Source of the DNA: an uncultured Clostridia bacterium
Lineage (GTDB): Bacteria; Bacillota; Clostridia; TANB77; CAG-508
NCBI GenBank assembly: GCA_944388705.1
Contig: CALXJU010000001.1
Location: 14,674-78,673 of the forward strand
Direction: 5' to 3'
Length of the DNA: 64,000 nt
Made by a program: the position numbers and the translations under genes. How positions within the stretch are numbered: the first letter of the stretch is position 1; each line of letters begins with the position of its first letter. The notes under the pieces are model-generated. The model did no database searches, was not told where the DNA came from, and saw only the letters and a list, made by a program, of their open reading frames with translations. Of the stretch, positions 6,370 through 58,983 are shown in pieces.

Positions 6370-6901
6370 TATGGTAAAAGCAAGTGAGTTTTGTGATTCA
6401 GTTAGAGATGGAACACATGATTCTCCCAAAAGAGTAAATAAAGGTTATAAGTTAATTACATCGAAACATATAAAAGAATATGGATTAGACTTAGAAAATG
6501 CTTATCATATATCTGAAAAAGATTTTAATAAAATAAATGAAAGAAGCTTAGTTGAAAAGAATGATATTTTGTATAGTATGATAGGAACAGTTGGGCTTAT
6601 TCATAGAATAGGCTATGAGCCTAATTATGCAATTAAAAATATAGGATTATTTAAGTTGAATGATGAAATAAAAAGTAAGTGGTTATATTATTACCTTAAA
6701 AGCCCTAAAATGAAATCTTATATTAATTCATTATTATCTGGTAGTACTCAACAATATATTACACTAAACAACCTAAGAAACTTACCAATAGCAATACCAG
6801 AAAATTATATTGATATGATTAAAATAATTAAAATTTTAGAGTTACTAGAAAAAAAGATTAATATAAATGCTCAAACAAATAATAATTTGTTAGTTGCTTA
6901 A
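6353..6901 (+). pseudogene. hsdS: Type I RM specificity subunit, 5' part (TRD1 plus central conserved region), ended by an in-frame stop inside a 46-bp insertion
   Basis: Start overlaps hsdM stop. The conserved central motif ILELLEKKININAQTNNNL is followed by LVA-stop. The homologous full-length copy at 8641 reads straight through (TNNNLYEIGKALYQEY). Confidence 0.75.
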
Positions 6902-6932
6902 AATTTTATAAATCAATTAGATAAATAATAAT

Positions 6933-7568: not shown

Positions 7569-7630
7569 TCATACAAATTGTTATTTGTTAACATAAATAG
7601 TATAATATTGCTTGGGAGGAATGATATTAT

Positions 7631-8632: not shown

Positions 8633-8640
8633 GAGGAAGA

Positions 8641-9816
8641 ATGAAGCTAGTTAAGTTAAGTGATATATCAAATAAGATTACAAAAGGAACAACTCCACAA
8701 AAGGAAGCATTTCAGGGAAAAGAAGTTAATTATATTAAATCTGAAAGCTTAAATTATAATGGACATATAGATATTAATTCTTTTTGTAGCATTGATATGG
8801 CAACACATAAATCAAAATTAAAGAGGTCAATTTTAAAAGAAAATGATATTCTTATATCTATTGCAGGAGCAAATTTGGGGAAAATAGGTATAGTAAGTAA
8901 AGATATGCTTCCTGCCAATACTAATCAGGCAGTGGGAATAATATCTTTAAAGCCTAATTTAGTTAAAAGTAGATATGTTTACTATTATATGCAGCAAATT
9001 AGAATAAGAAATATTATAAATAACTCTGTTGCACAGTCGGCACAACCAAACCTAAATCTTACACAATTAGGAAATATTAAAATTGAACTTCCTCAATTAA
9101 ATATACAAGACAAAATTATAAAAATATTAGATATTATATCAAAAAAAATAGACTTAAATATACGTACAAATAATAATTTGTACGAAATAGGAAAAGCACT
9201 TTATCAAGAGTATCTTGAAAATGAAGAATATACAAATAATTATGAAATAAGACAATTAAGCGAGATAACAACTAATAACAGAAATAAGATAGATCAAACT
9301 AAAGAATATAAAGTCTTATCTGCTGTTAATACTGGTAATCTAGTATTATCTGATGATTATTTTGATAAACAAGTTTATAGTAAAGACATAGGAAAATACT
9401 TAAATGTTAATAAAAATGACTTTGCTTATAATCCTGCGAGAATAAATATAGGTTCAATAGGATTAAATACTTTTGATTTTAACTGTTGTGTAAGTCCTGT
9501 ATATGTTACATTTTCAGTAGATAAAGATTATATAGATTTCTTTGATTTCTATTTTAAATCTAAAAGATTTAATGCTGAAGTAACATTAAGAGCTTCTGGC
9601 TCAGTTAGACAAGCTTTAAATTATAATGATTTTGGAATGATAGAAATACCATATCCGACAAAAGAAATGATTGAAAAATTTAATAGTTCATACAAAACAA
9701 TAAAGGAAAGAATCAATATAAATAAAACTAAAATAAGCAATTTAGAACAACTTAGAGATACACTACTACCAAAACTAATGAATGGCGAAATAGACCTAGA
9801 CAAAATAGAAATTTAG
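8641..9816 (+). CDS. hsdS: Type I RM specificity subunit, intact two-TRD copy
   Basis: 391 aa with two different target-recognition domains, a central repeat KILDIISKKIDLNIRTNNNLYEIGKALYQEYLE and a C-terminal repeat LRDTLLPKLMNGEIDLDKIEI. Confidence 0.9.
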   Translation: MKLVKLSDISNKITKGTTPQKEAFQGKEVNYIKSESLNYNGHIDINSFCSIDMATHKSKLKRSILKENDILISIAGANLGKIGIVSKDMLPANTNQAVGIISLKPNLVKSRYVYYYMQQIRIRNIINNSVAQSAQPNLNLTQLGNIKIELPQLNIQDKIIKILDIISKKIDLNIRTNNNLYEIGKALYQEYLENEEYTNNYEIRQLSEITTNNRNKIDQTKEYKVLSAVNTGNLVLSDDYFDKQVYSKDIGKYLNVNKNDFAYNPARINIGSIGLNTFDFNCCVSPVYVTFSVDKDYIDFFDFYFKSKRFNAEVTLRASGSVRQALNYNDFGMIEIPYPTKEMIEKFNSSYKTIKERININKTKISNLEQLRDTLLPKLMNGEIDLDKIEI

Positions 9817-9862
9817 TCATACAAATTGTTATTTGTAAAATAAATAGAGAGGAATGAAAGAT

Positions 9863-20507: not shown

Positions 20508-20594
20508 AATATAAAAAATTTTCAATTGAGTTTTACAAAATTGAAAAAATGTTATAAAATAATGAAGATAAAATCAAAAAGGAGTTATACAAGA

Positions 20595-21801
20595 ATGATA
20601 GAAAAGACAGTGTGTGAACTATTTGCTGGAGTTGGAGGTTTCAGAGTTGGATTAGAAAAAGCTGATTCTAATTGGAATACAGTCTGGGTTAATCAATGGG
20701 AACCTAGTAGAAAAAGTCAGTATGCATTTGATTGTTATGTATCACATTTTGGAAAAAACAAAAATTATATAAATAAAGATATTGCAAGTATAGATAAAAA
20801 TAACATTCCAGACCATAATTTATTAGTAGGAGGATTTCCATGCCAAGATTATTCAGTAGCAAGGACTGGAGCAAAAGGAATAGAAGGAAAAAAAGGAGTA
20901 CTTTGGTGGGAAATTAGAGATATCTTAGAAGCAAAATCACCTAAGTTTGTTCTTTTAGAAAATGTAGATAGACTATTAAAATCACCATCTAATCAAAGAG
21001 GACGCGATTTTGGAGTAATATTAGCATGTTTTAATGATTTAGGATATACAGTTGAATGGAGAGTAATCAATGCTGCAGAATATGGATTTGCTCAAAGAAG
21101 AAGAAGAATATTTGTTTTTGCTTGTAAGAATGATACTAATTATTTTAAAACAATAAAAAATCAAAATCTAGAAGATGTAATACATAAAAATCGGTTTTTT
21201 TGTAGAACAATTTGATATAAATTCTAATATTAACGGATGTTATAAAGAATTTAAATATAATAATCTATATGATGTTTCAGATAATTTTAAAATGGACTTT
21301 AAAAATGCTGGAATAATGAGAAATGGATTAATTTACACTGAAGAAGTAATTCCCAAAGAGATTAAATATACATCATTAAATAAAATTGTTGAAAAAGACG
21401 GCGTAGAAGATAAATATTATTTAGGAAACAATTTAGAAAAATGGAATTATTTAAAAGGAGCAAAAGATATTTTAAGAAAGGCAGGAACTCCACACGAATA
21501 TCATTTTAGAGAAGGAGCTATAGCTTTTCCAGATTCATTGGACAAACCAGCGAGAACAATGCTTACAAGTGAAGGCAGTCTTAATAGAAGCACACATGTA
21601 ATAGAAGATCCAAAAAGTAAATGTTATAGGATATTAACACCATTAGAAACAGAAAGAATAAATGGATTTCCAGATAATTGGACAGATACAGGAATGCCAC
21701 AGAGTTTTAGATATTTTTGCATGGGAAACGCATTAGTTGTAGGATTAATTGAAAAAATGGGAGAAAGGTTAAATAAAATATTTGAAAGCGAGGATAATTA
21801 A
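20595..21801 (+). pseudogene. DNA cytosine-5 methyltransferase split into two ORFs by a frameshift in a T7 tract
   Basis: N-part (20595-21215) has motif I FAGVGGFRVG, motif IV GGFPCQDYS and motif VI LLENV. C-part (21292-21801) has NGFPDNW and GNALVV. Removing one T from the T7 run at 21195-21201 fuses them. Confidence 0.8.
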
Positions 21802-25332: not shown

Positions 25333-26121
25333 ATGGAAACTAAACCTATGAAAATTTTAGTCATAGAAGATGATATTAATGATTGTAACAATTTTATTGA
25401 TTGCATTAAAAAGAGGGATGACATAGAGTTAGTAGCCATAACAGATTCAGATATTGATGGCTTGAAATATGTAAAAACTAAACATCCTGAAGGAATTGTA
25501 TTAGACTTAGAATTAAATAATAGCAAAAATGGTAATACTGATTCTCTAGAATTTCTATCAAACTTGAAAAAATTAAATTTGAATTATCAACCAATTGTAA
25601 TAGTTACAACTCATGTAAATTCAAAAAGAACTTATGATATTCTTCATAGAAATGGAGTGGATTTAATTTTATATAAAGACCATCCAAGTTATTCTTGTAA
25701 TAATGTATTAAATAAATTCATTTATTTAAGAGAAAATTCATCTTCAGTGGTAACTAAAAGTATCGAAGAAGAACTTAAAAGTGAAGAAGATGAAATTTCT
25801 GATTATATATCTAATGAGTTAGAATTAATTGGAATTAATCCTAAATTAAAAGGTAGACAATATATACATGACGGGATTTTGTTTTTAATACAAAATGAGA
25901 AAAGTAATATTAGTGTCATTCAATATTTGACTAAAATACATAAAAAACCAGCAAATACGATTACTAATGGTATTCAAAATGCAATAATACATGCTTGGAG
26001 AGTTACTCCTATAGAAGACTTAACTAAATATTATACTGCTAGAATAAATTATGAAACTGGAATACCAACTCCAATGGAATTAATTTATTATTATGCAGAT
26101 AAAATAAAGAAATTAATCTAG
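25333..26121 (+). CDS. response regulator with receiver domain and Spo0A-C-like DNA-binding domain (Spo0A paralog-like)
   Basis: MKILVIEDD...VLDLEL receiver. C-terminus ...TNGIQNAIIHAWR resembles the Spo0A_C signature (AIRHAIEVAW). The receiver is unlike canonical Spo0A. Confidence 0.65.
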   Translation: METKPMKILVIEDDINDCNNFIDCIKKRDDIELVAITDSDIDGLKYVKTKHPEGIVLDLELNNSKNGNTDSLEFLSNLKKLNLNYQPIVIVTTHVNSKRTYDILHRNGVDLILYKDHPSYSCNNVLNKFIYLRENSSSVVTKSIEEELKSEEDEISDYISNELELIGINPKLKGRQYIHDGILFLIQNEKSNISVIQYLTKIHKKPANTITNGIQNAIIHAWRVTPIEDLTKYYTARINYETGIPTPMELIYYYADKIKKLI

Positions 26122-39509: not shown

Positions 39510-40193
39510 ATGAGATTAATAGGAATAACAGGTAAAGCAGGTTCAGGGAAAACTACCTTTTCTGATATACTTGCTCAAAAATCAGGAATAGCAGTAGTAC
39601 ATATAGATGACATTTTAAAAGAAATAAAATTAAAATATTTTAGACCTCTAATGAAACAAGATAAACATGGAGAAAAGACAAAGGTTGACTCAAGATTGAA
39701 AACAATATTATATTCAAATAAAATATTATTTGGAATGTTTATGAAATTTAGAGCAAAGCTCATCCAAAAACCATTAGAAAAAAGAATTCAAGAATTATCA
39801 GATGAAAAAAATAGAATAATAATAATTGATGATATATTTTTACAATATCAGAAATGTTATCCAGAATTATCAGAAATATTTTTAATGGAAAGACCATTTA
39901 TTGATAGAAGACAATCAATAAGAGAAAGAGATGATTTATCAAAAGAAGAAGTTGTTGCATGTGATATTGCTCATTATAAGGGCAATTATAAAAACTTATT
40001 AAATAATGAACATATAATAAAAATACAAAACAATAAAACAAAAGAAGAGTTAACTAGACTAGCAGAAGAAGTATACCAAAAACGTTTTTCAACAATGAAA
40101 GAACGATATAGAGAAGATGTTAATGAAAAGGAACAACAGCAAGACAAAAATATAATACAAAGAGTTAATAATCAAAAAGGAGAAGTAAGATAG
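39510..40193 (+). CDS. P-loop nucleotide kinase-like protein (dephospho-CoA kinase/uridine kinase-like fold)
   Basis: MRLIGITGKAGSGKTT Walker A. Lies inside the pyr operon. Confidence 0.5.
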   Translation: MRLIGITGKAGSGKTTFSDILAQKSGIAVVHIDDILKEIKLKYFRPLMKQDKHGEKTKVDSRLKTILYSNKILFGMFMKFRAKLIQKPLEKRIQELSDEKNRIIIIDDIFLQYQKCYPELSEIFLMERPFIDRRQSIRERDDLSKEEVVACDIAHYKGNYKNLLNNEHIIKIQNNKTKEELTRLAEEVYQKRFSTMKERYREDVNEKEQQQDKNIIQRVNNQKGEVR

Positions 40194-42953: not shown

Positions 42954-43030
<77 letters not shown>

Positions 43031-43212
43031 TATTACATTTTTATCATTATTTTTAAATTATTAGATTATATTTATTAAAAAATTTATTCAAAATTTGTTT
43101 TCAAATATATTTCCAGTATATATATTAGAGAAAATATAACTAAAGATAAAATTGCATTGTGATTTATTTGACTTTGCAATATAGTGCAAAATATTATAGA
43201 GGAGTGATATAT

Positions 43213-44058
43213 ATGATAAAATTAGAGAAAAGTGAAAATTATAATAATCAAACTTTTGAAGATATTAAACATATTAATGAGGATGGAATTGAATATTGGT
43301 ATGCAAGAGAATTACAAAAAGTTTTAAATTATAAGGAATGGAGAAAATTTGAAAATGTAATAAATAAAGCAAAAGAAGCATGCAAAAATACTGATGTGAG
43401 TGTGTTTAAGCATTTTGTCGACGTCGACAAGTTGTCAAAACGTGCCAATAATGCGGAAGTTGTGATAAAAGACTATAAACTAACACGTTATGCTTGTTAT
43501 TTAATAGCACAAAATGGAGACAGTAGAAAAAAAGTAATAGCACTTGCACAAACATATTTTGCAGTTCAAACTAGAAAACAAGAAATTAGCGAAAAAGAAT
43601 ATAGTTCGTTAACAGAAGATGAAAAAAGATTTTATCAAAGAGATCTTACAAGAAAAGGAAATTATTCTCTTAATCAAACAGCTAAAAAAGCAGGAGTTAA
43701 AAATTTTGATAAATTTCATAATTATGGATATAAAGGATTATATAATGGAGAAAGTGCTGATGATATTGCAAAAAGAAAAGGTTTAAGATACAGAGAAGAT
43801 ATTTTAGACAACATGGGAAGTGATGAACTTATAGCAAATTTATTTAGAATTTCCCAAACAGAGCAAAAATTAAAAAAAGATAATATACAAACTGAAAAAG
43901 AAGCTAATAAAACTCATTATAATATAGGCAAGAATATAAGAGAAGTAATTGCGAAAAATGGTGGAACTATGCCAGAAGAATTACCTACACCTAAAAAGAG
44001 TTTGAAACAATTAGAAAAGGAAGATAAAAAAATGTTAAATAGAATAAATAGCATATGA
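43213..44058 (+). CDS. DinD/RhuM-family protein (DNA-damage-inducible protein D-like)
   Basis: EDIKHINEDGIEYWYARELQKVLNYKEWRKFENVINKAKEAC...KHFVDV...YKLTRYACYLIAQNGD matches the DinD/RhuM N-terminal signature. Confidence 0.6.
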   Translation: MIKLEKSENYNNQTFEDIKHINEDGIEYWYARELQKVLNYKEWRKFENVINKAKEACKNTDVSVFKHFVDVDKLSKRANNAEVVIKDYKLTRYACYLIAQNGDSRKKVIALAQTYFAVQTRKQEISEKEYSSLTEDEKRFYQRDLTRKGNYSLNQTAKKAGVKNFDKFHNYGYKGLYNGESADDIAKRKGLRYREDILDNMGSDELIANLFRISQTEQKLKKDNIQTEKEANKTHYNIGKNIREVIAKNGGTMPEELPTPKKSLKQLEKEDKKMLNRINSI

Positions 44059-46825: not shown

Positions 46826-46854
46826 TTGCAAAATATGTAAAAAAATGATATACT
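46826..46854 (+). promoter_or_regulatory. putative promoter TTGCAA-17-TATACT upstream of the NRPS gene
   Basis: -35 at 46826-46831, -10 at 46849-46854, about 35 nt before the NRPS RBS AGGAGAGAAGG. Confidence 0.45.
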
Positions 46855-46888
46855 TGTAAATAGAATATTGAATTAGAAGGAGAGAAGG

Positions 46889-49800
46889 ATGTTAGAAGAA
46901 TTAACTCAAGCTCAAAAAAGCATTTGGCTTACTGAGAAATATTATCAAGGAACAAGTGTAAACACAATATGTGGAACAGCGATAATTGAAGAAAAAGTTG
47001 ATTTTGTAAAATTAAAAAAAGCTATTGAAATAGTATGTCAGAAATATGACATTTTTAAATTGTGTTTTAAAATAGTAGAAGGAGAAATAAAACAAGAACT
47101 ATCTGAAAAAAATAATTTCAAGATAGAAATTATTAATGTTGCAAATTTACAAGAATTAGAAAAAGTAAGAAAGAAAATAATAGAAAAACCTTTAGAAATA
47201 GAAAGTTCAGAACTATCTCAATTTTATATCGTTAAATTTGACAATGGCGAAGGAGCATTTATAGCAAATATCCACCATATAATTTCTGATGCGTGGACAT
47301 TAGCCATTGTGTGTAAAGAAATAATTCAAATATATTCAAATCTAAAAAATAATCAAGAAATAGAAACAAAAGCTAAATATTCATATATAGAACATATTAA
47401 TTCAGAAAAAGAATATATCAAAAGTGAAAAATTCCAAAAAGACAAAAAATACTGGGAAGAAAAATTTGAAAAAATTCCAGAAGTAGCAGTAATACCAGGA
47501 AGCAAAAATGAAATAGAAAATAACATAAAAGGAAACAGAAAACAATTTACAATAGATAAAAATATAATAGAAAAAGTAAAAAAATACTGTAAAGAAAATA
47601 GTATATCACTATTTAATTTCTTTATGGCAACTTTTGGTATATATATTTCTGAGATTTCGAATTTAGATGAATTTGTAATAGGAACACCAATATTAAATAG
47701 AACAAATTATAAAGAAAAAAGTGCAATGGGAATGTTTATTAATACTGCACCATTAAAAATTAATTTAAATGGAGTAGAAGATTTCAAAACATTTGTAAAA
47801 AATATAGCAATAGACTCATTAAATATGCTAAAACACCAAAAATATTCATATCAGTCATTATTAGAAAATTTGAGAGAAAAAGACAGAAATATCCCAAATT
47901 TGTATAATATATTGTTATCATATCAAATAACTGATACAACATTAAAAGATGAAGATATAAAATATAGGTCAGAATGGACATTTAATGGATATTGTCCTGA
48001 TAATATGCAAATACATATATATGATTTTAATGATACAGATAATTTTAATATAGCATATGATTATAGAACAAGTATTTATGATGAAAAAGATATAGAACAA
48101 TTACATGATAGAATAAAACATGTAATAAGACAAGTTATTTCTGAAGAAAATATTAAAATTAAAGATATAGAAATTGTAACACCAGAAGAAAAAGAAAAAT
48201 TAGTAATAGATTTTAACAAAACACAATTAGAATATGATAAAACAAAGCCAATAATAAAATATTTTGAAGAACAAGTAGAAAAAACTCCAGAAGAAGTAGC
48301 AATGGTATTTGAAAATAAAAAATTAACATATAAAGAATTAAACGAAAAAGCAAATAGTTTAGCACATAAACTAAGAGAAGAAGGAATAACAAATAATTCA
48401 ATTGTAGGAATTATGAAAGAGCGTTCATTTGAAATAATAATAGCAATAATAGCAGTGCTAAAGGCAGGAGGAAGTTATATTCCAATTGCACCAGATTATC
48501 CTGATGATAGAATTAATTATATGTTAGAAGATAGTCATGCACAAATTGTGTTAGTAGGAAAAAAGCAACTATCAAGAATAAAAGAAGGACAAAAAGCAAT
48601 AAATATAGATTTATCAAATAAAGAAATATATGATTATAATAAGGAAAATATAGAAAATATTTCAAAACCAGAAGATTTATCATATTTAATATATACATCT
48701 GGTTCAACAGGAATACCAAAAGGTGTAATGTTGAAACAACAAAATTTAAGTAATTTTTATAATGCCATGAAGTCAACAATCAAATATTTAAATGATGGAA
48801 ACAAACATAAAATAATATCAATAACAACATTATCATTTGATATATTTGGATTTGAAACACTAATGTCTTTAACAAGAGGATTAACATTATATATGACAAA
48901 TGAAAATGAACAAAAAATAACTTCAAAACTAGAAAAAATAATAAAAGAAAATGGTATAGAAATAATACAAACAACACCATCTGTAATGAAATTTCATTTG
49001 GATAATATAGAAGATATAAAAGATTTATCTAGTCTAAAATATGTAATCCTTGCAGGAGAACAATTACCAAAAACACTAGTAGATAGATTAAAAAAAGATA
49101 TACCAGGAGTAACAATATATAATGGATATGGACCATCAGAAACAACAATATTTTCAACAATAACAGATGTGACAAATTTAGAAAAAGTAACAATAGGTAA
49201 TCCTATAGCAAATACACAAATATATATATTAAATAAAAATAAAAAATTAGTACCACAAGGAACAATTGGAGAAATATATATAGCTGGAGATGGTGTTGGA
49301 AAAGGATACATGAACAAAAAAGAACAGACAGAAAAATCATATTTAAAAAATCCATTTATAGAAAATTCTATAATGTATAAGTCAGGAGATTTAGGTTCAT
49401 TTGATTCAAAAGGAAAAATTACTTGTTATGGAAGAATTGATAATCAAGTAAAGATAAATGGATTAAGAATAGAACTTTCTGAAATCGAAAAGTTGATGTT
49501 ATCAATATATAATATATCAGATTGTGTTGTAATAAAAAAACATATAAATGATAGAGATGCTTTATGTGCATATTATACACAAAAAGGACATGTTGAAGAA
49601 GAAATAATAAAAACTGTATTAAAAAATAAATTACCACAATATATGATACCACAATATTTTATAAAAATAAATCAAATGCCACATACACCAAATGGAAAAA
49701 TAGACAAAAAACTATTACCAGAACCTAGTATTCAAGAAAATGATAAACAAATTATAAAAATAAGAAATCAAATAGATGAAGAATTAATCAAAATGATTAA

Positions 49801-52800
49801 AAAAATGTTATATGTAGAAAATATTAGTTTATCAGATACTTTACTTGATTTAGGGGGAGATTCATTAACTGCAATTACATTATCAACTAAGATATTATCT
49901 AAATTTAATGTGCAAGTTAATATAAAAGACATATTATCAAATTATACTATAAAAGATATATCAGATTTTATAAGAGATAATCAATCAAAAATTAGTGCAA
50001 AAATAAAAATAGAAAAAGCTCCAAAACAAGAATTATATCCATTATCAACAGCACAAAAAAGGATATATTATAATTCTAAAATGATAGGAGACGAAAATAT
50101 TGTTTACAATTTACCTGGAGCTGTAATTGTTGATGAAATATTGAATAAAGAAAAAGTTAATAATATATTTAAAAAGATAATAGAAAGACATGAAATACTT
50201 AGAACATCTTTTGTAATAAAAGATGATAATGTAATGCAAAAAATACAAGAAAATATAGATTTTAATATACAAACATATCAAAATACTGAAAAAGAACAAC
50301 AAAAGATAATGGAAGAATTTTCAAAGCCATTTAACTTAGAAAAAGCTCCATTATTAAGAGTAGAACTACATTATTTAGATAATAAAAAGACTTTATTATT
50401 ACTAGAAACACATCATATAGTAATGGATGGAACTGGATTAAATAATTTAATAATAGAATTTAATAGATTATATAATGGAGAAAATTTAAAAAGAATCCCA
50501 ATACAATATAAAGATTATGCAGTATGGGAAAACAAATTTAATGAAAGTGAAAATGTAAAAAAATATGAACAATATTGGGTAAATAAATTTAAAGATTGTG
50601 AATTTTCACAATTAAATTTACCATATGATTATAAAATATCAGCAAATAGAAATTATAATGGAAACAAAGTAATAAATGTAGTAGATGAACATAAATTTAA
50701 AAAAATAGAAAGATATGCTAAGAAAAAAGGAGTATCACCATATATATTATTTATATCTGCATTTTTCGTATTATTATATAAATATACTGGACAAGAAGAA
50801 ATTGTCTTAGGAAGTCCATTTGCAAATAGAAATATAAATGAAACGAAAAGAATGATAGGAATGTTTGTAAATAATATTGTTGTAAAAGGAAAAATAAAAT
50901 CAGAGGCAACATTCCAAGAATTTTTAAATGAAATAAAAGAACAAGTGTTAGATGACTTATCTAATCAGCCATATCCTTTTGATAGTTTAGTAAAAAAACT
51001 CGGAGTTACAGGCGATAACTCAAGAAATCCATTATTTGATATAATGTTTACATATCAAAATAAAGAAGAAAATATTATAAAATTACATGAAAAAGAAGTA
51101 CAAATAATAGAAATAAATAATAATATAGCAAAATTCAATTTATCATTAGAAATAAAGCCTAAAACACATTCAATTAATATTGAATATAATACAGATTTAT
51201 TTAAAGAGATAACAATAAAAAGTATATTTGAACATTATATGTACATTTTAGAACAAATAATGAATAACATTAATATTAAAATTAATGACGTAGATATGAT
51301 TACTGAAAATGAAAGTAAAATATTAGATAGGTTTAATAATACAGAAGGAGAAATAAATAATGATACAACAGCATTTTTAATAGAACAACAGGTAATCAAA
51401 AATCCGGATAATATAGCAGTTATATGTGAAGATAAATCAATAACATATGGAGAATTAGATAAAAAAGCAAATAGCTTAGCAAACTATTTAATAAAAAAAG
51501 GAATAAAAAATAATGATATAGTATGTATAATGACAAATAGGTCAATAGAGACAATTGTTGCAATGTATGCTATATTGAAAGCAGGAGGAGCATTTTTAAA
51601 TATAGATCCTACATATCCAATTGATAGAACGAAATATTATATAGAAAATAGTAAAACACAGTATGTACTAGTACAAAGAGAATTAAAAGAATTGGTAAGA
51701 GAAATCCCAAATTGTATAGAAATAGATTTAGAAAATAATCCAATATATGACTCAAATTTTGAAAAGCCACAAGTAGATATAAAAATGGATGATTTATCAT
51801 ATATAATATATACATCTGGTTCAACAGGTGTTCCAAAAGGTGTAATGCTAGAACAAGTGGGGTTAACAAATATGGCAAAAGCAATGACAAAAGCATTAGA
51901 CTACTTACATGATGGTAAAATACATACATTGTTATCAGTAACATCAACACCATTTGATATATTTGTTTATGAAATAATAGTATCATTAACACATGGACAA
52001 AGAATAGTTATGGCAAATAATGCAGAACATAGAAATCCAAAACTACTAGAAAAATTAATGAAAAAATATAACACAGATGTAATGACAGTAACACCAAGTT
52101 TAATGAAAATCATATATGATAATAGAGAAAAAGAAACATCATTAGGTTTAGTAAAAAATATGGTTTTTGGAGGAGAACCATTACCAGAAAAATTTGTAAA
52201 GGATTTAAAAGCACTTGCAAATGATATAACAGTATTCAATATATATGGACCAAGTGAAATAACAGTATTGTCAAATGTACAAAATTTAAATGGTGAAACA
52301 GAAATCACAACAGGTCCACCTATAATGAATACACAAATTCATATATTAGATAAAAATCTAAACCGAGTCCCAATAGGTGTTGTTGGAGAAATATATATAT
52401 CTGGAGTTCAAGTAGGAAAAGGATATCTAGGAAAACCAGAACTAACAAGTGAAAAATTCTTACCAAACAAATTTGGAAAAGGTAAAATGTATAAATCTGG
52501 AGATATAGGAAGATGGACATTTGAAGGAAAAGTTCAATGCTTAGGTAGAATAGACCATCAAATAAAGCTTAGAGGATTAAGAATTGAACTAGGAGAAATA
52601 GAAAGTAAAATGGAGCAATATCCGGGTATATCAGCAGCAGTAGTAAATAAAGTCAATGTAGAAGATAAAGAAAGTTTATGTGGATATTATGTTACAGAAG
52701 AACAAGCAAAAGTTGAAGAAGCAGAAGTAAAAAGCTATTTAAGAAAATACTTGCCACAATATATGGTACCAAGCTACATTGTACATTTAGAAAAAATGCC

Positions 52801-54346
52801 ATATACAATAAACAGAAAAATAGATAGAAAAGCATTACCGTTACCAAATGTAAATGAAGAAAAATTTAAAGAAAGTGACCCAAATAAATTTGACAAAACT
52901 GAACTAAAACTATTACAAATTTGGAAAAATATATTACATATAAAAAATATATCATTAGAAGATAATTTCTTTGATATAGGTGGAGATTCAATATCTGCTA
53001 TAAAAATGCAAATAGAAGCATTAAAATATGGCTTTGATTTTGAATATGCAGATATATTTAAATATCCAACAATAAAAGAATTAGCAGGAAAGAAAATGAC
53101 TCAAGTAGGAGAAAATATATCAGAATATGACTATTCGAAAATTAATAAAATGTTAGAAGCAAATCAAATAGAAAATCTAAAAACAATAAAAAAATATCAA
53201 GTAAAGAACATTTTATTAATAGGAGGTACAGGATATTTAGGAGTACATATATTAAATGAATTTTTACAAAAAGAGAAGGGCAAAATCTATTGCCTAGTAA
53301 GAAGAAAAGACAATAAAGACCCTATAGTAAGATTACAACAAAAGATAGCATTTTATTTCGGTAATGATTATTTTGAAAAATACCAGAATAGAATAAAAGT
53401 AATTGAAGGGGATATAGTCAAAAGAAATCTTGGACTTTCAAGAGAAGATAATGAATTACTAAAAAATGCAATAACAACAGTTGTAAATGCAGGTGCAATC
53501 GTTAAACATTTTGGAACGCCAAAATTATTTAATGAAATAAATGTAACAGGAACACAAAATATTGTAAACTATTGTAAAAGAGAAAGTAAAAGATTAATAC
53601 ATATATCTACAATTAGTGTATCAGGTAATGGCGAAAAAGAAGAAAATATAGAAGAAACAAAAGAAAATATAAAAAATAAAAAAATATTCAAAGAAAATAC
53701 TTTATATATAAATCAAAATATTTCTGGAATTTATACGACTACAAAATATAAAGCAGAAATTATAGTTCTGAATGCAATTGCAGAAGGGTTAGATGCACAA
53801 ATATTAAGGATGGGAAATATCACAAACCGATTTTCGGATGGAGTTTTTCAACAAAATGTTGAAGAAAATGCTTTTGCCAAAAGGTTAAAATCATTTATAG
53901 AAATAGGAGCATTCCCAGAATATTTACTACAACATGCAATAGAACTTGGACCAGTAGACTTATGTGCAGAAGCGGTAATAAAAATATTAGAACATAATAG
54001 TAAATGCAATGTGTTCCACTTGTATAATTCAAATTTATTAGAAATTAAATTATTAATATCTACTTTAAATGAATTAGGTATAAAAATACAAGGTGTAAGT
54101 GATAAAATGATGTCAGAAACAATAACAGAAATTCTAGAAGATAATGATAGAAAAGAAATATTATCTGGTATTATAAATGATATTGACTCAAATAAAAAAT
54201 TAGTATATACTTCTAATGTAAGAATAGATTCTGAATTTACAGAAAGATATTTAGAAAAAATAGGATTTTCTTGGAAAAAGATTGACAAAGAGTACATATT
54301 AAAATATATGGACTACTTCAAGAAAATAAAATTTATAAATTATTAA
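46889..54346 (+). CDS. two-module nonribosomal peptide synthetase C-A-T-C-A-T-R with C-terminal thioester reductase domain
   Basis: C domains HHIISDAWT (about nt 47270) and HHIVMDGTG (about 50420). A domains LSYLIYTSGSTGIPKGV / YGPSETT / YKSGDLGSF / GRIDNQVKINGLRIELSEIE and LSYIIYTSGSTGVPKGV / YGPSEIT / YKSGDIGRW / GRIDHQIKLRGLRIELGEIE. PCP serines LGGDSLTAI and IGGDSISAI. R domain LLIGGTGYLGVHIL (Rossmann) with YTTTKYKAE (YxxxK). Confidence 0.95.
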   Translation: MLEELTQAQKSIWLTEKYYQGTSVNTICGTAIIEEKVDFVKLKKAIEIVCQKYDIFKLCFKIVEGEIKQELSEKNNFKIEIINVANLQELEKVRKKIIEKPLEIESSELSQFYIVKFDNGEGAFIANIHHIISDAWTLAIVCKEIIQIYSNLKNNQEIETKAKYSYIEHINSEKEYIKSEKFQKDKKYWEEKFEKIPEVAVIPGSKNEIENNIKGNRKQFTIDKNIIEKVKKYCKENSISLFNFFMATFGIYISEISNLDEFVIGTPILNRTNYKEKSAMGMFINTAPLKINLNGVEDFKTFVKNIAIDSLNMLKHQKYSYQSLLENLREKDRNIPNLYNILLSYQITDTTLKDEDIKYRSEWTFNGYCPDNMQIHIYDFNDTDNFNIAYDYRTSIYDEKDIEQLHDRIKHVIRQVISEENIKIKDIEIVTPEEKEKLVIDFNKTQLEYDKTKPIIKYFEEQVEKTPEEVAMVFENKKLTYKELNEKANSLAHKLREEGITNNSIVGIMKERSFEIIIAIIAVLKAGGSYIPIAPDYPDDRINYMLEDSHAQIVLVGKKQLSRIKEGQKAINIDLSNKEIYDYNKENIENISKPEDLSYLIYTSGSTGIPKGVMLKQQNLSNFYNAMKSTIKYLNDGNKHKIISITTLSFDIFGFETLMSLTRGLTLYMTNENEQKITSKLEKIIKENGIEIIQTTPSVMKFHLDNIEDIKDLSSLKYVILAGEQLPKTLVDRLKKDIPGVTIYNGYGPSETTIFSTITDVTNLEKVTIGNPIANTQIYILNKNKKLVPQGTIGEIYIAGDGVGKGYMNKKEQTEKSYLKNPFIENSIMYKSGDLGSFDSKGKITCYGRIDNQVKINGLRIELSEIEKLMLSIYNISDCVVIKKHINDRDALCAYYTQKGHVEEEIIKTVLKNKLPQYMIPQYFIKINQMPHTPNGKIDKKLLPEPSIQENDKQIIKIRNQIDEELIKMIKKMLYVENISLSDTLLDLGGDSLTAITLSTKILSKFNVQVNIKDILSNYTIKDISDFIRDNQSKISAKIKIEKAPKQELYPLSTAQKRIYYNSKMIGDENIVYNLPGAVIVDEILNKEKVNNIFKKIIERHEILRTSFVIKDDNVMQKIQENIDFNIQTYQNTEKEQQKIMEEFSKPFNLEKAPLLRVELHYLDNKKTLLLLETHHIVMDGTGLNNLIIEFNRLYNGENLKRIPIQYKDYAVWENKFNESENVKKYEQYWVNKFKDCEFSQLNLPYDYKISANRNYNGNKVINVVDEHKFKKIERYAKKKGVSPYILFISAFFVLLYKYTGQEEIVLGSPFANRNINETKRMIGMFVNNIVVKGKIKSEATFQEFLNEIKEQVLDDLSNQPYPFDSLVKKLGVTGDNSRNPLFDIMFTYQNKEENIIKLHEKEVQIIEINNNIAKFNLSLEIKPKTHSINIEYNTDLFKEITIKSIFEHYMYILEQIMNNINIKINDVDMITENESKILDRFNNTEGEINNDTTAFLIEQQVIKNPDNIAVICEDKSITYGELDKKANSLANYLIKKGIKNNDIVCIMTNRSIETIVAMYAILKAGGAFLNIDPTYPIDRTKYYIENSKTQYVLVQRELKELVREIPNCIEIDLENNPIYDSNFEKPQVDIKMDDLSYIIYTSGSTGVPKGVMLEQVGLTNMAKAMTKALDYLHDGKIHTLLSVTSTPFDIFVYEIIVSLTHGQRIVMANNAEHRNPKLLEKLMKKYNTDVMTVTPSLMKIIYDNREKETSLGLVKNMVFGGEPLPEKFVKDLKALANDITVFNIYGPSEITVLSNVQNLNGETEITTGPPIMNTQIHILDKNLNRVPIGVVGEIYISGVQVGKGYLGKPELTSEKFLPNKFGKGKMYKSGDIGRWTFEGKVQCLGRIDHQIKLRGLRIELGEIESKMEQYPGISAAVVNKVNVEDKESLCGYYVTEEQAKVEEAEVKSYLRKYLPQYMVPSYIVHLEKMPYTINRKIDRKALPLPNVNEEKFKESDPNKFDKTELKLLQIWKNILHIKNISLEDNFFDIGGDSISAIKMQIEALKYGFDFEYADIFKYPTIKELAGKKMTQVGENISEYDYSKINKMLEANQIENLKTIKKYQVKNILLIGGTGYLGVHILNEFLQKEKGKIYCLVRRKDNKDPIVRLQQKIAFYFGNDYFEKYQNRIKVIEGDIVKRNLGLSREDNELLKNAITTVVNAGAIVKHFGTPKLFNEINVTGTQNIVNYCKRESKRLIHISTISVSGNGEKEENIEETKENIKNKKIFKENTLYINQNISGIYTTTKYKAEIIVLNAIAEGLDAQILRMGNITNRFSDGVFQQNVEENAFAKRLKSFIEIGAFPEYLLQHAIELGPVDLCAEAVIKILEHNSKCNVFHLYNSNLLEIKLLISTLNELGIKIQGVSDKMMSETITEILEDNDRKEILSGIINDIDSNKKLVYTSNVRIDSEFTERYLEKIGFSWKKIDKEYILKYMDYFKKIKFINY

Positions 54347-54358: not shown

Positions 54359-56182
54359 ATGCAACTAATAAATGTAGAATTTATATTATTATTAATATCA
54401 GCATTTTCCACAACATTATTGATGTGTAATATTATGAGAAAAAAGCCTTTAAAGCAATTGCATAAGGCTTTTTCCTCTGTGTTATTATGTGTTCTTATTA
54501 TTTGCGTAGGAGTCATATCACAACTGGTATGCAGTACTTTTTGGAATATAAATCCATTGTATTTTGAAAATTTTATATACATAGGCACATGTATGTTACC
54601 AGTCGCATTATTTTTTACGGCAATAATTTTTAAAAAAACAAAAATAAAAGTTAAGAAAAGATATCTTTTGTTATTTATAATACCAATACTTTCGTTATTA
54701 GTATTATATACAAATAAATATCATAGTTTATTTTATAAAGTGTATTCTTCAAATTTAAATGAAATGGTTTTTGGAAATTATTTTTATATACATACAATAT
54801 ACACATATGGATTATTAATAGTAAGCATAGCAATAATGTTAAATGTTTCACTAAAGAATTCAGGTGTATTTTCAAAACAAACATTATTAATAATAATAGG
54901 AACAATGTTTCCAATAATAATAAATATTATGGGAACACTTAAGATATTTAAAATGAATGTTTGTTTAACACCAATAAGTTTTTCAATAGCTGTAATGTTT
55001 TATACATTTGCGATAATGAGATTTAATTTTTTAAATATTACACCAATTGCATTAAGAACAATAGTAGATAGAATATCAGATAGTTATATTGTGCTAGATG
55101 AAAATAATGTAGTTACAGATTTTAATAAAACATTTTTAGATACATTTAAAATAAAAGAAGAAAGTATAAGAAGTAAAAATATATTTGAATTTTTAGAAGA
55201 AAATAAAAAATATAAAGCTAATATATTAAAACTAAAAAATACATTAGAAAAAACGAAACATTCAAATGATACAATATCCTATGAGCAAAAATTTGAAAAA
55301 ATTAATAAATATTTTTTAATCGAGGTAACAGAAATTAATGTTGACAAATCATCATTAGGAACATTACTACTATTAAAAGACATAACACAACACAAAGAAG
55401 ATATGGAAACAATAAAAAACAATCAAGACATACTAATGGAAAGAGAAAGATTAGCTTCTTTAGGACAATTAATAGGAGGAATTGCACATAACTTAAAAAC
55501 ACCAATTATGTCTATATCTGGGGCAGTAGAAGGGCTAGAAGACTTAATAAAAGAATATGATGCATCAATAGATGACCCATTAGTAAATTCACAAGACCAT
55601 CATGAAATAGCAAGAGATATGCAAAGTTGGATACCAAAAATAAAAACACACATAGAATACATGTCAGACATTATTACAACAGTAAAAGGACAAGCTGTAG
55701 CATTATCAAATCAAGAAGAAATGTCATTTACAATTGGAGAATTAGTAAAAAGAGTTAATATATTAATGAAACATGAATTAAAAAATGCATATTTATATCT
55801 TAATGTTTTAATGAAAACAGATGAAAATTTAGTCTTGTCAGGAGATGTAAATAATCTTGTACAAGTAATAAATAATATGATTTCAAATTCAATCCAAGCT
55901 TATAATGGAGAAAGAGATAAAAATATTGAACTTGAAATTACTAAAGAAAAAAATAATGTGATTTTTTCAGTAAGAGATTATGCTGGGGGAATACCAAGAG
56001 AAGTACAAGATAAATTATTTAATGAGATGGTTACAACTAAAGGTAAAAATGGAACAGGACTAGGATTATATATATCATATTCAAATATAAAAGCACATTT
56101 TGGTGGAGATATAAATTTTGTAACAGTAGATGGACAAGGAACAACATTTAATATAATAATTCCAATTAAAAAAGCCGTTTAA
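54359..56182 (+). CDS. sensor histidine kinase (polytopic N-terminus, PAS, HisKA, HATPase)
   Basis: Multiple TM helices, H-box LASLGQLIGGIAHNLKTP, G-boxes GGIPRE / GTGLGL. Starts 13 nt after the NRPS stop. Confidence 0.85.
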   Translation: MQLINVEFILLLISAFSTTLLMCNIMRKKPLKQLHKAFSSVLLCVLIICVGVISQLVCSTFWNINPLYFENFIYIGTCMLPVALFFTAIIFKKTKIKVKKRYLLLFIIPILSLLVLYTNKYHSLFYKVYSSNLNEMVFGNYFYIHTIYTYGLLIVSIAIMLNVSLKNSGVFSKQTLLIIIGTMFPIIINIMGTLKIFKMNVCLTPISFSIAVMFYTFAIMRFNFLNITPIALRTIVDRISDSYIVLDENNVVTDFNKTFLDTFKIKEESIRSKNIFEFLEENKKYKANILKLKNTLEKTKHSNDTISYEQKFEKINKYFLIEVTEINVDKSSLGTLLLLKDITQHKEDMETIKNNQDILMERERLASLGQLIGGIAHNLKTPIMSISGAVEGLEDLIKEYDASIDDPLVNSQDHHEIARDMQSWIPKIKTHIEYMSDIITTVKGQAVALSNQEEMSFTIGELVKRVNILMKHELKNAYLYLNVLMKTDENLVLSGDVNNLVQVINNMISNSIQAYNGERDKNIELEITKEKNNVIFSVRDYAGGIPREVQDKLFNEMVTTKGKNGTGLGLYISYSNIKAHFGGDINFVTVDGQGTTFNIIIPIKKAV

Positions 56183-56195
56183 ACGGCTTTTTTAT
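56169..56195 (+). terminator. rho-independent terminator
   Basis: aaagccgttt/aaacggcttt perfect stem plus T-run. Confidence 0.7.
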
Positions 56196-56197: not shown

Positions 56198-56536
56198 CTA
56201 TATAAATAAATTCATTATAGTAAGAACTAAAGTAGAAAAAAATGCTTTTATTGAATATTTAAATCCTCTTTTTACAAAAACTGCAGGAGTAGAAAGTCTA
56301 TTTTCGCCAATAATAGTTAAAGCAACACAAGGTTCTTCAATTTCACGATATTCTATTATAGCAGTTGAAGGACTTTCTTCAGTCTTTTTTTCTTCTTGAG
56401 CCATAACTTCTTCTTCTACTTGAATTTCTTCATCTTGTAAATTTATATTTTCTTCTATCTCAGAGACTTCTTCTATATTATTTTTATTTAGAATTTCTTC
56501 AGTTTCTTCAATATTTCCTTCTAATAATTTGTCCAT
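56198..56536 (-). CDS. hypothetical acidic protein with C-terminal hydrophobic segment
   Basis: 112-aa Glu-rich ORF with no known domain. Confidence 0.4.
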   Translation of the reverse strand: MDKLLEGNIEETEEILNKNNIEEVSEIEENINLQDEEIQVEEEVMAQEEKKTEESPSTAIIEYREIEEPCVALTIIGENRLSTPAVFVKRGFKYSIKAFFSTLVLTIMNLFI

Positions 56537-56840
56537 AATACCTCCATATAATTATACAATTTTAGTATATCAAGCCAGATTATAAAAATCAAATAAAATG
56601 ATAAAATGTCATAAAAAAGTAATATATTCGTAATATTGTTGTAATATTTTTGATTAATAAATTATAATATATAACTATTTCATAGCAAAAACATATTCTG
56701 GGTCTTCGTCGGGGGTCTTTGCTTATTCAATAGTTATATATTATAATTTATAAAATTTAAAAAATTAACAAAAAATATTGATTTTTGTCGAATAAATGAC
56801 TATAATATCGATAAATGGGATGATAACAAGGAGGAGGAAT

Positions 56841-57902
56841 ATGAGAAAAGCACTTCAAAATCAATTAAACGGAGCTGAACAAGTAAAATATAAAATAATA
56901 GCTGTTGATGATGAAATAGGAATAATTGATTCATTATCAGTTTTTTTAAAAAGGACTGATTATGAATTTGTGGGAATTACAGACCCAGTAGAAGCAATAG
57001 AAACAATAAAAAGAGAACACTTTGATTTGATGTTATTAGACTTTATGATGACACCATTACATGGAGATGAAGTTGTAGAAGAAATTAGAAAATTTAATAA
57101 AGAATTATATATTTTATTATTAACAGGGCATAAAGATTTAGCCCCACCATTAGAAACAATAAAAAGATTAGATATACAAGGTTATTGCGAGAAAAGTGAT
57201 AAATTCGATCAATTACTTTTATTAATAGAGTCAGGAATAAAATCAATAAAACAAATGCAAGAAATAAAAAGAATAAATGATGAACTAGAAGAAACAAATG
57301 AAAAATTAGAACAAGCATATTTAGAAAGTGTTCAAACATTAAGATATACAGTAGAAGCAAAAGATACATATACAAGAGGTCATTCAGATAGAGTATCAGA
57401 ATATTCAGTCTTAATTGGAACAAAATTAGGATTGCCAGAAGAACAATTAAAAATATTAAGAATAGGAGGGTTATTCCACGATATAGGAAAAATAGGAATA
57501 CCAGATAGTATATTACAAAAAAATGCAAAATTAACAGATGATGAATATTCTGAAATAAAAAATCATCCATCAATAGGAGCACATATATTAGGTGCAGCAT
57601 CAATATTTAAAGATATAATACCAATAGTAAAACATCATCATGAAAGATATGATGGAAAAGGATATCCTTCAGGATTAGCTGGTGAAAATATACCATATTT
57701 AGCAAGGATAACAGCAGTTGCAGATACATTTGATGCGATGACAAGTAAAAGAAGTTATAGAGATGCATTAGATTTACAATATGTAAAAGATGAATTTGAA
57801 AGATGTAAAGGAACACAATTTGACCCACAAATTGCTGAAGTATTTATAAATATCTTGAATAATGATTTTGAAAAAATAAAAGAGATACAAAACAAGTATT
57901 AA
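56841..57902 (+). CDS. response regulator with HD-GYP phosphohydrolase domain (c-di-GMP phosphodiesterase-type)
   Basis: Receiver IIAVDDE...MLLDFMM. HD-GYP domain HSDRV...GGLFHDIGK...HHERYDGKGYP. RBS GGAGGAGG before ATG 56841. Confidence 0.85.
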   Translation: MRKALQNQLNGAEQVKYKIIAVDDEIGIIDSLSVFLKRTDYEFVGITDPVEAIETIKREHFDLMLLDFMMTPLHGDEVVEEIRKFNKELYILLLTGHKDLAPPLETIKRLDIQGYCEKSDKFDQLLLLIESGIKSIKQMQEIKRINDELEETNEKLEQAYLESVQTLRYTVEAKDTYTRGHSDRVSEYSVLIGTKLGLPEEQLKILRIGGLFHDIGKIGIPDSILQKNAKLTDDEYSEIKNHPSIGAHILGAASIFKDIIPIVKHHHERYDGKGYPSGLAGENIPYLARITAVADTFDAMTSKRSYRDALDLQYVKDEFERCKGTQFDPQIAEVFINILNNDFEKIKEIQNKY

Positions 57903-58039: not shown

Positions 58040-58983
58040 GTGGTAGATGTGAACATTTTTAAAAAGGGAAATAACTTAACCCTTTGGTGGGTAAGGTTTA
58101 GACGACTCACGGACAATTGGTTATTATATAAAAAACATAAAATAAAAGAATCAACATATTTGAATTATAATTATATTATAAATACATATCTTAATAAAAA
58201 ATTCGCAAAAAAACGATTAAGTTATTTTTTAGATTATGATATGAATGAATTTATAGACAGTTTAAAAAAAACTTATCAAATAAAACTGTAAGAGATATAG
58301 TATTAGTATTAAAATCGATATTAAAATTTGCAGAAAGAAAATATAATACAAACTTTAAATTAGATTTAATAACAATGCCAAGTTCAGAAAAAACAGAATT
58401 ACAGGTATTTAATGAAAAAGAAATAAAGAAACTAGAAAAAATATGTATAAAATCAGAAGATATAAGAGATATAGGAATATTAATAGCAATATATACAGGA
58501 ATGAGGATAGGAGAAATATGTGCATTAAAATGGGAACATATTGATTTAAATAAAAAATTAATAAATGTAAAACAAACATTACAACGAGTTTATGTGGAAA
58601 AGAAAAAAACAAAAGTAATAATAACTCCACCTAAAACTAAAACATCAGAAAGAAAAATTCCTATACCACAAGTATTATATGATGAATTAAAGATTAAGAG
58701 CATAAATTATTCAAAACAGGCATATGTAACAACAGGGCTAGAAGATAAATATATTGAACCAAGAAGTTTTCAATATGTATATAAAAAAGCACTTGAAACA
58801 GGCGAAATTAAATACAGAAATTTTCACTGCTTAAGACATACATTTGCAACAAGATGTATAAGAGTAGGTATGGATATAAAATCTTTAAGTGAAGTATTAG
58901 GACATGCAGATGTTAATATAACATTAAATAGATATGTACATTCTTCTTATGATTCAAAGAAAAGATTTATGGAAAAATTATAA
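58040..58983 (+). pseudogene. phage-type tyrosine integrase split by a frameshift in an A8 homopolymer
   Basis: N-part 58040-58291 is the SAM-like domain. C-part 58375-58983 carries HCLRHTFATRCIRVGMDIKSLSEVLGHADVNITLNRYVH. Frame continuity is restored with A9 or A6 at 58264-58271. Confidence 0.75.

Follow-up and report, generated by a model that had tools for sequence, protein, structure and literature searches.

A dimodular, reductase-terminated nonribosomal peptide synthetase of uncultured gut Clostridia and its adjoining seven-helix sensor kinase: a possible signal synthase and receptor pair

We analysed 64,000 nt of a contig from an uncultured Clostridia bacterium (CALXJU010000001.1 of assembly GCA_944388705.1, positions 14,674 to 78,673; this whole stretch is called the window). 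The window is about 25% G+C throughout, and the longest open reading frame (ORF) of the region, at 46889..54346 on the plus strand, encodes a nonribosomal peptide synthetase (NRPS) of 2485 aa with an ATG start. A sequence-only reading of the same DNA had described this ORF as a giant single-gene NRPS. Its coordinates, start codon and length proved exact and there is one NRPS ORF, but 'single-gene' does not describe the locus, as a histidine kinase gene starts 12 nt past the NRPS stop codon and a REC-HD-GYP response regulator gene usually comes next. This locus, in which the kinase may be the receptor for the NRPS product, is the subject here. Its features are as follows, by window coordinates and strand.

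46826..46888, plus strand: region upstream of the NRPS gene, with a -35/-10-like pair (TTGCAA, 17 nt, TG-TATACT; a promoter by consensus match only) and the ribosome-binding site (RBS) GGAGAGAAGG 7 nt before the ATG
46889..54346, plus strand: NRPS gene, 2485 aa, domain order C-A-T-C-A-T-R (condensation, adenylation, carrier and reductase domains), from Pfam, NCBIfam and motifs
46889..48208, plus strand: first condensation domain (C1), aa 1-440, HHIISDA at aa 129, without an upstream carrier domain; conserved backbone
48251..49738, plus strand: first adenylation domain (A1), aa ~455-950, code DIFTIAGIFK; variable cassette 1
49781..49972, plus strand: first carrier domain (T1), aa 965-1028, phosphopantetheine Ser992
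50024..51319, plus strand: second condensation domain (C2), aa 1046-1477, HHIVMDG, LCL-like
51371..52843, plus strand: second adenylation domain (A2), aa ~1495-1985, code DIYTVGIVLK; start of variable cassette 2
52901..53098, plus strand: second carrier domain (T2), Ser2034
53210..54343, plus strand: terminal thioester reductase domain (R), GGTGYLG at 2112, Tyr2282/Lys2286
54359..56182, plus strand: sensor histidine kinase gene, 607 aa, its RBS AAGGAG overlapping the NRPS stop; 12-nt gap
54359..55048, plus strand: HisKA_7TM (seven-transmembrane, 7TM) sensor, about aa 1-230, with the seven hydrophobic, short-looped helices in aa 1-222; variable cassette 2 ends here
55049..55408, plus strand: PAS domain of the kinase, aa 231-350; tracks the backbone
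55409..56179, plus strand: DHp/HATPase_c kinase core, with H-box GGIAHNLKTP (His377) and N, G1 and G2 boxes
56170..56195, no strand assigned: hairpin AAAAGCCG-TTTAAA-CGGCTTTT and T-run, overlapping the kinase stop; read from the sequence
56796..57902, plus strand: REC + HD-GYP response regulator gene, HD at aa 228 and GYP at aa 289

Pfam profiles recovered two Condensation, two AMP-binding, two AMP-binding_C and two PP-binding domains and a terminal NAD_binding_4/Epimerase domain in the NRPS (E 1e-183 to 1e-15), and Pfam and NCBIfam place all seven domains in the order C-A-T-C-A-T-R within one polypeptide. The architecture proposed from sequence alone is thereby borne out, including the terminal R domain, both carrier domains and both A domains, and the catalytic cores are intact. 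HHxxxD motifs lie at aa 129 in C1 (HHIISDA, where Ala replaces the usual Gly) and at 1175 in C2 (HHIVMDG). Both A domains carry the adenylation motifs A3 (SGSTG(I/V)PKG at 604 and 1643), A4 (FDIF at 650 and 1689), A5 (N(G/I)YGPSE at 745 and 1784), A7 and A8 (848 and 1886), and the A10 motif of the second A domain, NRKIDRK, retains its Lys. The carrier motifs LGGDSL and IGGDSI give Ser992 in T1 and Ser2034 in T2, and the R domain contains GGTGYLG at 2112 and Y2282-x3-K2286. The top NCBIfam model for the NRPS was the AusA aureusimine synthetase model NF047350 (aligned over aa 374-2479, 1511.9 bits). As this score is below the cutoff of 2500 bits, and an extra, intact N-terminal C domain is present, the NRPS was rejected as an AusA equivalog.

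When every window ORF of at least 80-100 aa was compared with Pfam or NCBIfam, no phosphopantetheinyl transferase (PPTase, PF01648-type), MbtH, thioesterase, acyl carrier protein (ACP) or acyl-CoA ligase was found among these ORFs of the 64-kb window, in agreement with the earlier statement that MbtH, PPTase and thioesterase are missing nearby; no exporter was found in the window either. A promoter scan gave 117 matches against 113 expected in shuffled sequence and is uninformative at 25% GC, and the only Rfam match was one tRNA, with no riboswitch, the c-di-GMP type included.

The NRPS stop codon (TAA, 54344-54346) sits within the Shine-Dalgarno sequence AAGGAG of the kinase gene, which starts at 54359. 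A consensus terminator scan of the plus strand from the NRPS start to the kinase stop found no terminator-like site, although it also missed the hairpin at 56170-56195, whose GC stem makes it a likely bidirectional intrinsic terminator of the NRPS-kinase operon. The 12-nt gap, the RBS over the stop codon and a terminator only past the kinase together indicate that the NRPS and the kinase are co-transcribed and translationally coupled. The REC-HD-GYP gene lies about 0.6 kb 3' of the kinase gene in the window with both signature motifs intact, and its product is presumed to be the cognate output, a c-di-GMP phosphodiesterase. As this output would be enzymatic (HD-GYP) and not DNA-binding, the regulator is not a typical pathway-specific transcription factor.

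Two further genes adjoin the regulator. Between it and the kinase, on the minus strand (56198-56536), is a 112-aa ORF without a Pfam match, very acidic in its N-terminal half and with a hydrophobic tail at the C-terminus. It is kept at 43-75% identity and in the same position in many related loci and is absent where the regulator directly follows the kinase. Between the regulator and tex is an XerC/D-like tyrosine recombinase that is split in the window (SAM-like N-terminal ORF 58040-58291, catalytic ORF 58375-58983) and is a single ORF of 309-314 aa at the same position in L001, L006, L020 and L021.

The pairing of NRPS and kinase extends across the family. An identical NRPS protein is encoded on an 86.8-kb contig (contig name BRZ_AH) of ENA metagenome assembly ERZ24773228. 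A genome scan, using one genome per species, gave 26 loci with 50-90% NRPS identity, all in metagenome-assembled genomes (MAGs) named as uncultured 'Clostridia bacterium' or 'Clostridium sp.' and sampled from humans (Hadza, Nepal, Brazil) and rabbit. The named relatives are Clostridium sp. CAG:356, 28_12 and 26_21, and one 70%-identity sequence cluster alone has 1295 members. In each of these 26 genome loci (NRPS identity of 50% or more, downstream sequence present) the kinase gene comes after the NRPS gene, with a gap of -14 to +52 nt, and the pairing is kept in L007, L011, L015 and L026, where the flanks are unrelated to those of the window. Three trimodular NRPS relatives (37-55% identity) also have the kinase next to them, and it is missing beside the NRPS relatives of 33% and 24% identity. 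In the reverse direction, a metagenome scan with the kinase alignment gave 80 kinases (53-73% identity), most of them from contigs that carry the label of human-gut metagenome assemblies. These were pooled with the genome loci. An ORF with an NRPS R domain abuts the kinase in 95 of the 96 loci in which the kinase has at least 1.3 kb of upstream sequence, and in 70 of 86 loci a same-strand REC-HD-GYP gene follows within 3 kb, usually at a distance of 40-170 bp from the kinase. The common order is thus NRPS, kinase, regulator. The identity of the kinase core is 62-100% across the family, typically 65-96%.

A gene for the membrane serine protease HtrA is divergent upstream of the NRPS in most loci, the window included, and several loci do not have it. 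HtrA was considered as a functional partner or target and rejected, as its adjacency fits ancestral synteny and in L019 an inversion between the flanks of htrA and of regulator-tex covers exactly the NRPS-kinase unit. In several lineages (L019, L072, L080, L083, L096, L101, L107 and L112) the flank of the regulator, of HtrA or of both is reversed relative to the NRPS-kinase unit, which points to repeated inversions that end at the borders of this unit. In a further group of loci (L091/L092, L035, L110, L037, L040 and L022) the NRPS is interrupted and the kinase and regulator are intact. Three of the interrupted NRPSs consist of a 'C-A' ORF followed by a 'T-C-A-T-R' ORF with the break inside A1, and L091 and L092, which come from independent samples, share the break. 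These loci could be signal-negative 'listener' genotypes or sequencing artefacts.

We compared 48 dereplicated NRPS-kinase pairs segment by segment, using pairwise identities, and found a mosaic. The A-domain codes come in many combinations. At A1 they are Phe-like, Gly, Gly-like, Thr, Pro, Val and others, and the last A domain has DIYTVGI[VI]LK, DAFWLGGTFK, DVWYLGGICK, DIFQTAGVFK, DILTLG[MV]IWK and other codes. C1, T1, C2, PAS and the kinase core form a backbone block, within which C1, PAS and kinase correlate at rho 0.54-0.75; C1 and PAS reach 0.66-0.75 despite a separation of more than 6 kb. A2, T2, R and the 7TM sensor form a second block (rho 0.43-0.76). The 7TM sensor is uncorrelated with its own kinase core (rho -0.06 and 0.10) and follows PAS at only 0.18-0.21, as against 0.57-0.71 for R, so that the correlation falls sharply inside the kinase gene and not at the intergenic junction between NRPS and kinase. 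In partial Mantel tests controlling for kinase, C1 and C2, the 7TM sensor was associated with R (r=0.79) and with A2 (r=0.74), both at p=2e-4 by permutations of a type that is anti-conservative for related sequences, and its partial correlation with the kinase was r=-0.19. These patterns suggest that A1, and A2-T2-R together with the 7TM sensor, are cassettes swapped on a conserved backbone.

The two parts of the sensor behave differently. Sensor residues 1-100 are associated with R (coefficient 0.80, p=2e-4) and show no link to A1, while residues 120-230 associate with the distant A1 (coefficient 0.20, p=5e-4, controlling for kinase, C1, R and A2); the PAS domain, used as a control, showed no association with A1 (p=0.56). 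In some pairs the cassettes are closer than the backbone, as in L009/L021 (A2-R-7TM 81-85% vs C1 64%) and L030/L017 (A2 85% vs C1 62%), which indicates either transfer between species or old balanced alleles.

Near-isogenic pairs allow the exchanged tracts to be delimited. Several locus pairs have flanks of 97-99% DNA identity, and therefore belong to the same species, and carry different cassettes. Between L017 and L086 identity is 98-100% over C1-A1-T1, drops to 8-75% over the tract that spans C2 and the whole 7TM domain, and is mostly 92-100% in PAS and beyond (70% in one PAS window), and L023 and L034 are identical (100%) in C1 and the kinase core, with 46% identity in A1 and 37-42% in A2-T2-R-7TM. 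In L010/L016 and L020/L021 the replaced tract begins in the A2 core and ends near kinase aa 75; in these pairs, where only the A2 block is changed, sensor aa 1-75 are changed and aa 120-230 are 80-100% identical. A1-T1-C2 is replaced in L084/L094 and L061/L064, with moderately divergent R and 7TM. All six pairs with a changed last module have their right breakpoint in the transmembrane region of the kinase (~aa 75) or where 7TM meets PAS, and not one of them has it in T2, in R or at the NRPS stop codon. L063/L075 differs from these in having two separate patches replaced, A1-T1 and kinase aa 121-360, at 56-83% DNA identity with a single 3-nt gap and no frameshift, and the ~4 kb between the patches (C2 from ~aa 1120, A2, T2, R and sensor aa 1-120) are mostly 92-100% identical.

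What the NRPS makes can be read in part from its domains. Stachelhaus positions were taken by alignment to a GrsA-PheA fragment; the numbering reproduces the published code DAWTIAAICK, and in relatives the method returns the textbook codes for Thr (DFWNIGMVHK), Val (DAFWLGGTFK), Gly (DILQLGMIWK) and Pro (DVQFIAHV-K). The window codes so extracted are DIFTIAGIFK for A1, which equals the Phe code at 5 of 9 pocket positions in a domain whose best single-domain PDB relatives are TycA and GrsA-PheA, and DIYTVGIVLK for A2, an uncharged hydrophobic pocket that matches no code we could name. The product, which the sequence-only reading had called not predictable, is thus partly predictable. An apparent special similarity of both A domains to the glycine module of LgrA (574-627 bits) was rejected as an artefact of summed scores, inflated because LgrA contributes two A domains to the sum; the per-domain scores of 267-318 bits are ordinary. 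C2 is of the standard LCL type (297 bits to TycC, PDB 2jgp). C1 is a diverged C domain with weak matches to solved C domains (98 bits to TycC, an LCL domain, 45 bits to RzmA-Cs and 40 bits to CDA-C1, by PDB similarity only). It sits at the extreme N-terminus, with its core motif from ~aa 5-6 and no carrier domain upstream in cis or in the neighbouring gene, the divergent htrA. It keeps its His-His-Asp and is 45-100% identical across the family as part of the backbone, and such conservation implies that C1 is in use.

The best PDB relative of T2-R is the PCP-R didomain of Mru_0351 (6vtj, 1e-63), followed by AusA-R (4f6l, 7e-39), in keeping with the reductive release and the gut-Clostridia/AusA-like R-domain class named in the sequence-only reading, and we are fairly confident that the NRPS releases a dipeptide reductively. 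Reductase-terminated dipeptide clusters are common in gut metagenomes according to PMC8518294 and PMC12327764, and the former describes a Clostridium cluster, BGC0001686, that yields N-octanoyl-Met-Phe-H in E. coli, and ruminopeptin, an N-acyl Leu-Glu aldehyde. The product is probably N-acylated and the acyl group is probably fatty, so that its domains make an N-acyl-(Phe-like)-(hydrophobic) dipeptide aldehyde the likeliest outcome. A conserved C1 fits a constant acyl group, with the variable residues 1 and 2 supplying specificity.

These elements can be joined into a model. A PPTase encoded elsewhere would prime the dimodular NRPS, and C1 would most likely acylate residue 1, with an acyl-CoA or acyl-ACP of primary metabolism as donor. 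Residue 1, loaded by A1, would be hydrophobic and Phe-like, and residue 2, loaded by A2, hydrophobic and uncharged. C2 would join the two, and the R domain, with NAD(P)H, would release the thioester as an N-acyl dipeptide aldehyde or possibly alcohol. Comparative genomics suggests that this lipophilic product would be the ligand of the co-translated kinase, sensed by its seven-helix membrane domain, and the domain content suggests that the kinase would then phosphorylate the REC-HD-GYP regulator, altering c-di-GMP hydrolysis and with it cell behaviour. Alleles of A1, A2-T2-R and 7TM would be exchanged as cassettes between and within species to give private 'pherotypes', as in staphylococcal agr. 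A signal module is the simplest model because it accounts for the coupled NRPS-kinase pair, the membrane-embedded sensor, the second-messenger output and the within-species alleles, which take in the specificity-determining parts of synthase and sensor alike. On the comparative evidence, we judge the chances about even that the kinase senses the NRPS product, i.e. that the two are a signal synthase and its cognate receptor with pherotype-like alleles and a c-di-GMP output. The full scheme is held more tentatively. It would be a hitherto unrecognised kind of quorum-sensing system, carried by uncultured human-gut Clostridia, in which an N-acyl dipeptide aldehyde or alcohol made by the NRPS is the autoinducer, helices 1-3 of the 7TM kinase receptor read the C-terminal residue or warhead and helices 5-7 read residue 1, REC-HD-GYP passes the signal to c-di-GMP, and private pherotypes exist within and between species.

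The chemistry could differ from this model in two ways. If C1 did not N-acylate, a free dipeptide aldehyde would cyclise and oxidise to a (dihydro)pyrazinone, as with AusA and several gut clusters, and this would be the product or signal. Such an outcome would fit the HHxxxDA motif of C1 in place of DG, its weak similarity to solved starter C domains and the coverage of aa 374-2479 by the AusA model, and pyrazinone signals are known in AI-3 and DPO. We nevertheless regard it as improbable, as a pyrazinone needs a free amine and C1 is intact and conserved, with both His and the Asp retained, a start at about residue 5 and 45-100% identity within the backbone; moreover, clusters of the same architecture gave N-acyl aldehydes (PMC8518294). 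Of the product types proposed by the sequence-only reading, a linear, N-acylated aldehyde is therefore more likely than a pyrazinone. The R domain might instead reduce the thioester by four electrons to a stable, non-electrophilic N-acyl dipeptide alcohol, which would be better suited to signalling. Aldehyde- and alcohol-forming R domains carry the same motifs and are inseparable by sequence (PMC8024701), and the alcohol-forming R domains of MxaA and MxcG type also match, but the nearest characterised R domain is the aldehyde-forming AusA-R and the characterised gut relatives release aldehydes (PMC8518294), so that we consider an alcohol unlikely, if less so than a pyrazinone.

Whether the product is a signal at all has to be weighed against the role published for this class of metabolites, which in PMC8518294 and PMC12327764 is protease inhibition and needs no receptor. 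The NRPS may be an ordinary secondary-metabolite gene whose N-acyl dipeptide aldehyde inhibits cysteine or serine proteases of the host or of competitors, with the kinase and regulator serving at most for expression control or for some other stimulus, and with the sensor co-varying through one contiguous recombination tract. This class literature speaks for it, as does the divergent HtrA, a membrane serine protease, upstream in most loci, although that adjacency is accounted for by old synteny and the L019 inversion. It is also helped by the finding that identity in R, the physically adjacent segment, is the strongest predictor of sensor identity, as plain linkage or contiguous co-transfer predicts; A2 has no independent effect on the sensor once R is included, and the effect of A1 on the whole 7TM domain then has p ~0.1 and is significant only with coarse covariates. 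Three points, however, go beyond linkage, namely the break of correlation within the kinase gene with none across the intergenic gap, the association of the distant A1 with sensor residues 120-230 (helices 5-7), and the replacement of two patches in L063/L075, which is hard to obtain with a single tract. The kinase pairing also persists at 37% NRPS identity and with unrelated flanks. Protease inhibition with no signalling role thus appears rather unlikely to us, and a protease-inhibitor role could coexist with signalling. The case for a signal and its receptor is weakened by several other observations. The permutation tests are lenient, as stated above; L018 and L011 have the same A2 code with a sensor identity of 57%, and L010 and L086 have sensors of 69% identity with A2 at 39%; and the swap events may be few and old, representing a few old allele classes that are not independent. 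Chimeric metagenome assembly across conserved stretches could have occurred, which would weaken associations and not create them. C1 does not appear assignable to a starter class by PDB similarity, and the window contains neither a PPTase nor an exporter. Finally, there is no cultured carrier, because all matches are MAG or metagenome sequences; none of the best 120 of 1934 NRPS matches bears the name of a cultured isolate.

Known systems resemble parts of the locus. The gut-Clostridia R-domain clusters (Guo et al. 2017, BGC0001686; rup of Ruminococcus bromii) share with the window NRPS a dimodular architecture with an N-terminal C domain and a terminal reductase, an origin in human-gut Clostridia and an N-acyl dipeptide aldehyde product (predicted here). 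The carriers of the window locus are uncultured low-GC (~25%) Clostridia. The descriptions of such clusters that we searched, which did not extend to the primary papers, make no mention of an obligatory co-transcribed 7TM kinase or of cassette polymorphism. AusA of Staphylococcus aureus (A-T-C-A-T-R) has the A-T-C-A-T-R core and aldehyde-forming R domain in common with the window NRPS, but it lacks the N-terminal C domain, its products cyclise to pyrazinones and it is adjoined by a dedicated PPTase, AusB. Mru_0351 of Methanobrevibacter ruminantium (6vtj/6vtz), the best solved T2-R relative and likewise from a gut/rumen anaerobe, differs in being an archaeal and far larger multimodular NRPS (R at aa 3701-4187). 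Its product is not known (PMC8024701).

A parallel in allele structure is agr, which shares with the window locus signal genes and a polytopic kinase in one operon and a hypervariable segment across the signal part and the sensor with conserved ends. In agr (AgrB-AgrD-AgrC-AgrA) the C-terminus of AgrB, AgrD and the sensor of AgrC are hypervariable, and specificity groups exist within one species. The agr signal differs, however, in being a ribosomal thiolactone peptide processed by AgrB, the output is DNA-binding, and there is no homology to the window locus. A parallel in circuit is the Rpf/diffusible signal factor system of Xanthomonas, in which the multi-pass kinase RpfC senses the small signal of the adjacent synthase RpfF and passes it to the REC-HD-GYP c-di-GMP phosphodiesterase RpfG (PMC8042644). 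As in the proposed module, a lipophilic signal reaches a REC-HD-GYP protein through a membrane kinase. Rpf, CqsA/CqsS and LqsA/LqsS differ from it in their synthase (a crotonase, or in Cqs and Lqs a pyridoxal phosphate enzyme) and in their signal (a fatty acid or hydroxyketone), and we know of no cassette-type allelic diversity in the Rpf, Cqs or Lqs systems. An NRPS with a reductase, PvfC, makes a cell-density signal in the Pvf system of Pseudomonas (PMC10194917). The Pvf receptor, unlike that proposed here, is not encoded with the NRPS and is not known. In pyoverdine loci, NRPS specificity and the receptor FpvA co-diversify within species, but FpvA is a TonB-dependent uptake receptor and not a kinase. 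We found no literature linking 'dipeptide aldehyde' with 'histidine kinase', or describing NRPS-kinase signalling in this class, in a search that did not reach the primary papers of the class. As an NRPS, the enzyme adds a new member to a known class, and its coupling to a co-diversifying kinase is undescribed in the literature searched, with prior mention possible in those primary papers.

Elsewhere in the window, a defence and mobile-element island extends over 2427-23958. It contains a phage replisome organiser and an IstB-like ATPase (2427-3753); a type I restriction-modification locus (4849-12994) of hsdM, three hsdS-type genes with a tyrosine recombinase among them, and hsdR, in a layout suggestive of a phase-variable specificity shufflon; a WapI-like immunity protein; an AbiEii-like AAA_21 ATPase with DUF3800 (15443-17415); and a MazG-like protein. 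At 20526-21801 a C-5 cytosine DNA methylase is broken into two neighbouring ORFs (229 aa, profile positions 3-178; 169 aa, positions 203-323), likely through a frameshift, pseudogene formation or assembly error. A Spo0A-like response regulator (REC + Spo0A_C) is encoded at 25333-26121, and this small-genome gut Clostridia lineage may therefore retain sporulation control. The pyrimidine operon includes, between the genes for dihydroorotase and orotidine monophosphate decarboxylase, an AAA_18/cytidylate-kinase-like gene (39510-40193) that is absent from the otherwise syntenic L001. After this operon come tRNA-Arg(ACG) and a BRO-N domain protein (43159-44058); the content of this interval (42954-44058) does not match that of L001, a relative of 90% identity, and may mark an integration hot spot.

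Few biosynthetic genes of the human gut are as widespread as the reductase-terminated dipeptide NRPS clusters, which are now read as makers of host-directed protease inhibitors. If the kinase does sense the NRPS product, gut peptide aldehydes would primarily, or also, be bacterial signals, with a bacterial receptor and a native role in cell-cell signalling, and the locus would be a rare NRPS-based pherotype system. For NRPS engineering, the locus offers a natural collection of working A-domain, C-A and A-T-R swaps whose breakpoints can be seen by comparing near-identical strains. It is also a possible source of orthogonal signal/receptor pairs for the synthetic biology of anaerobes.

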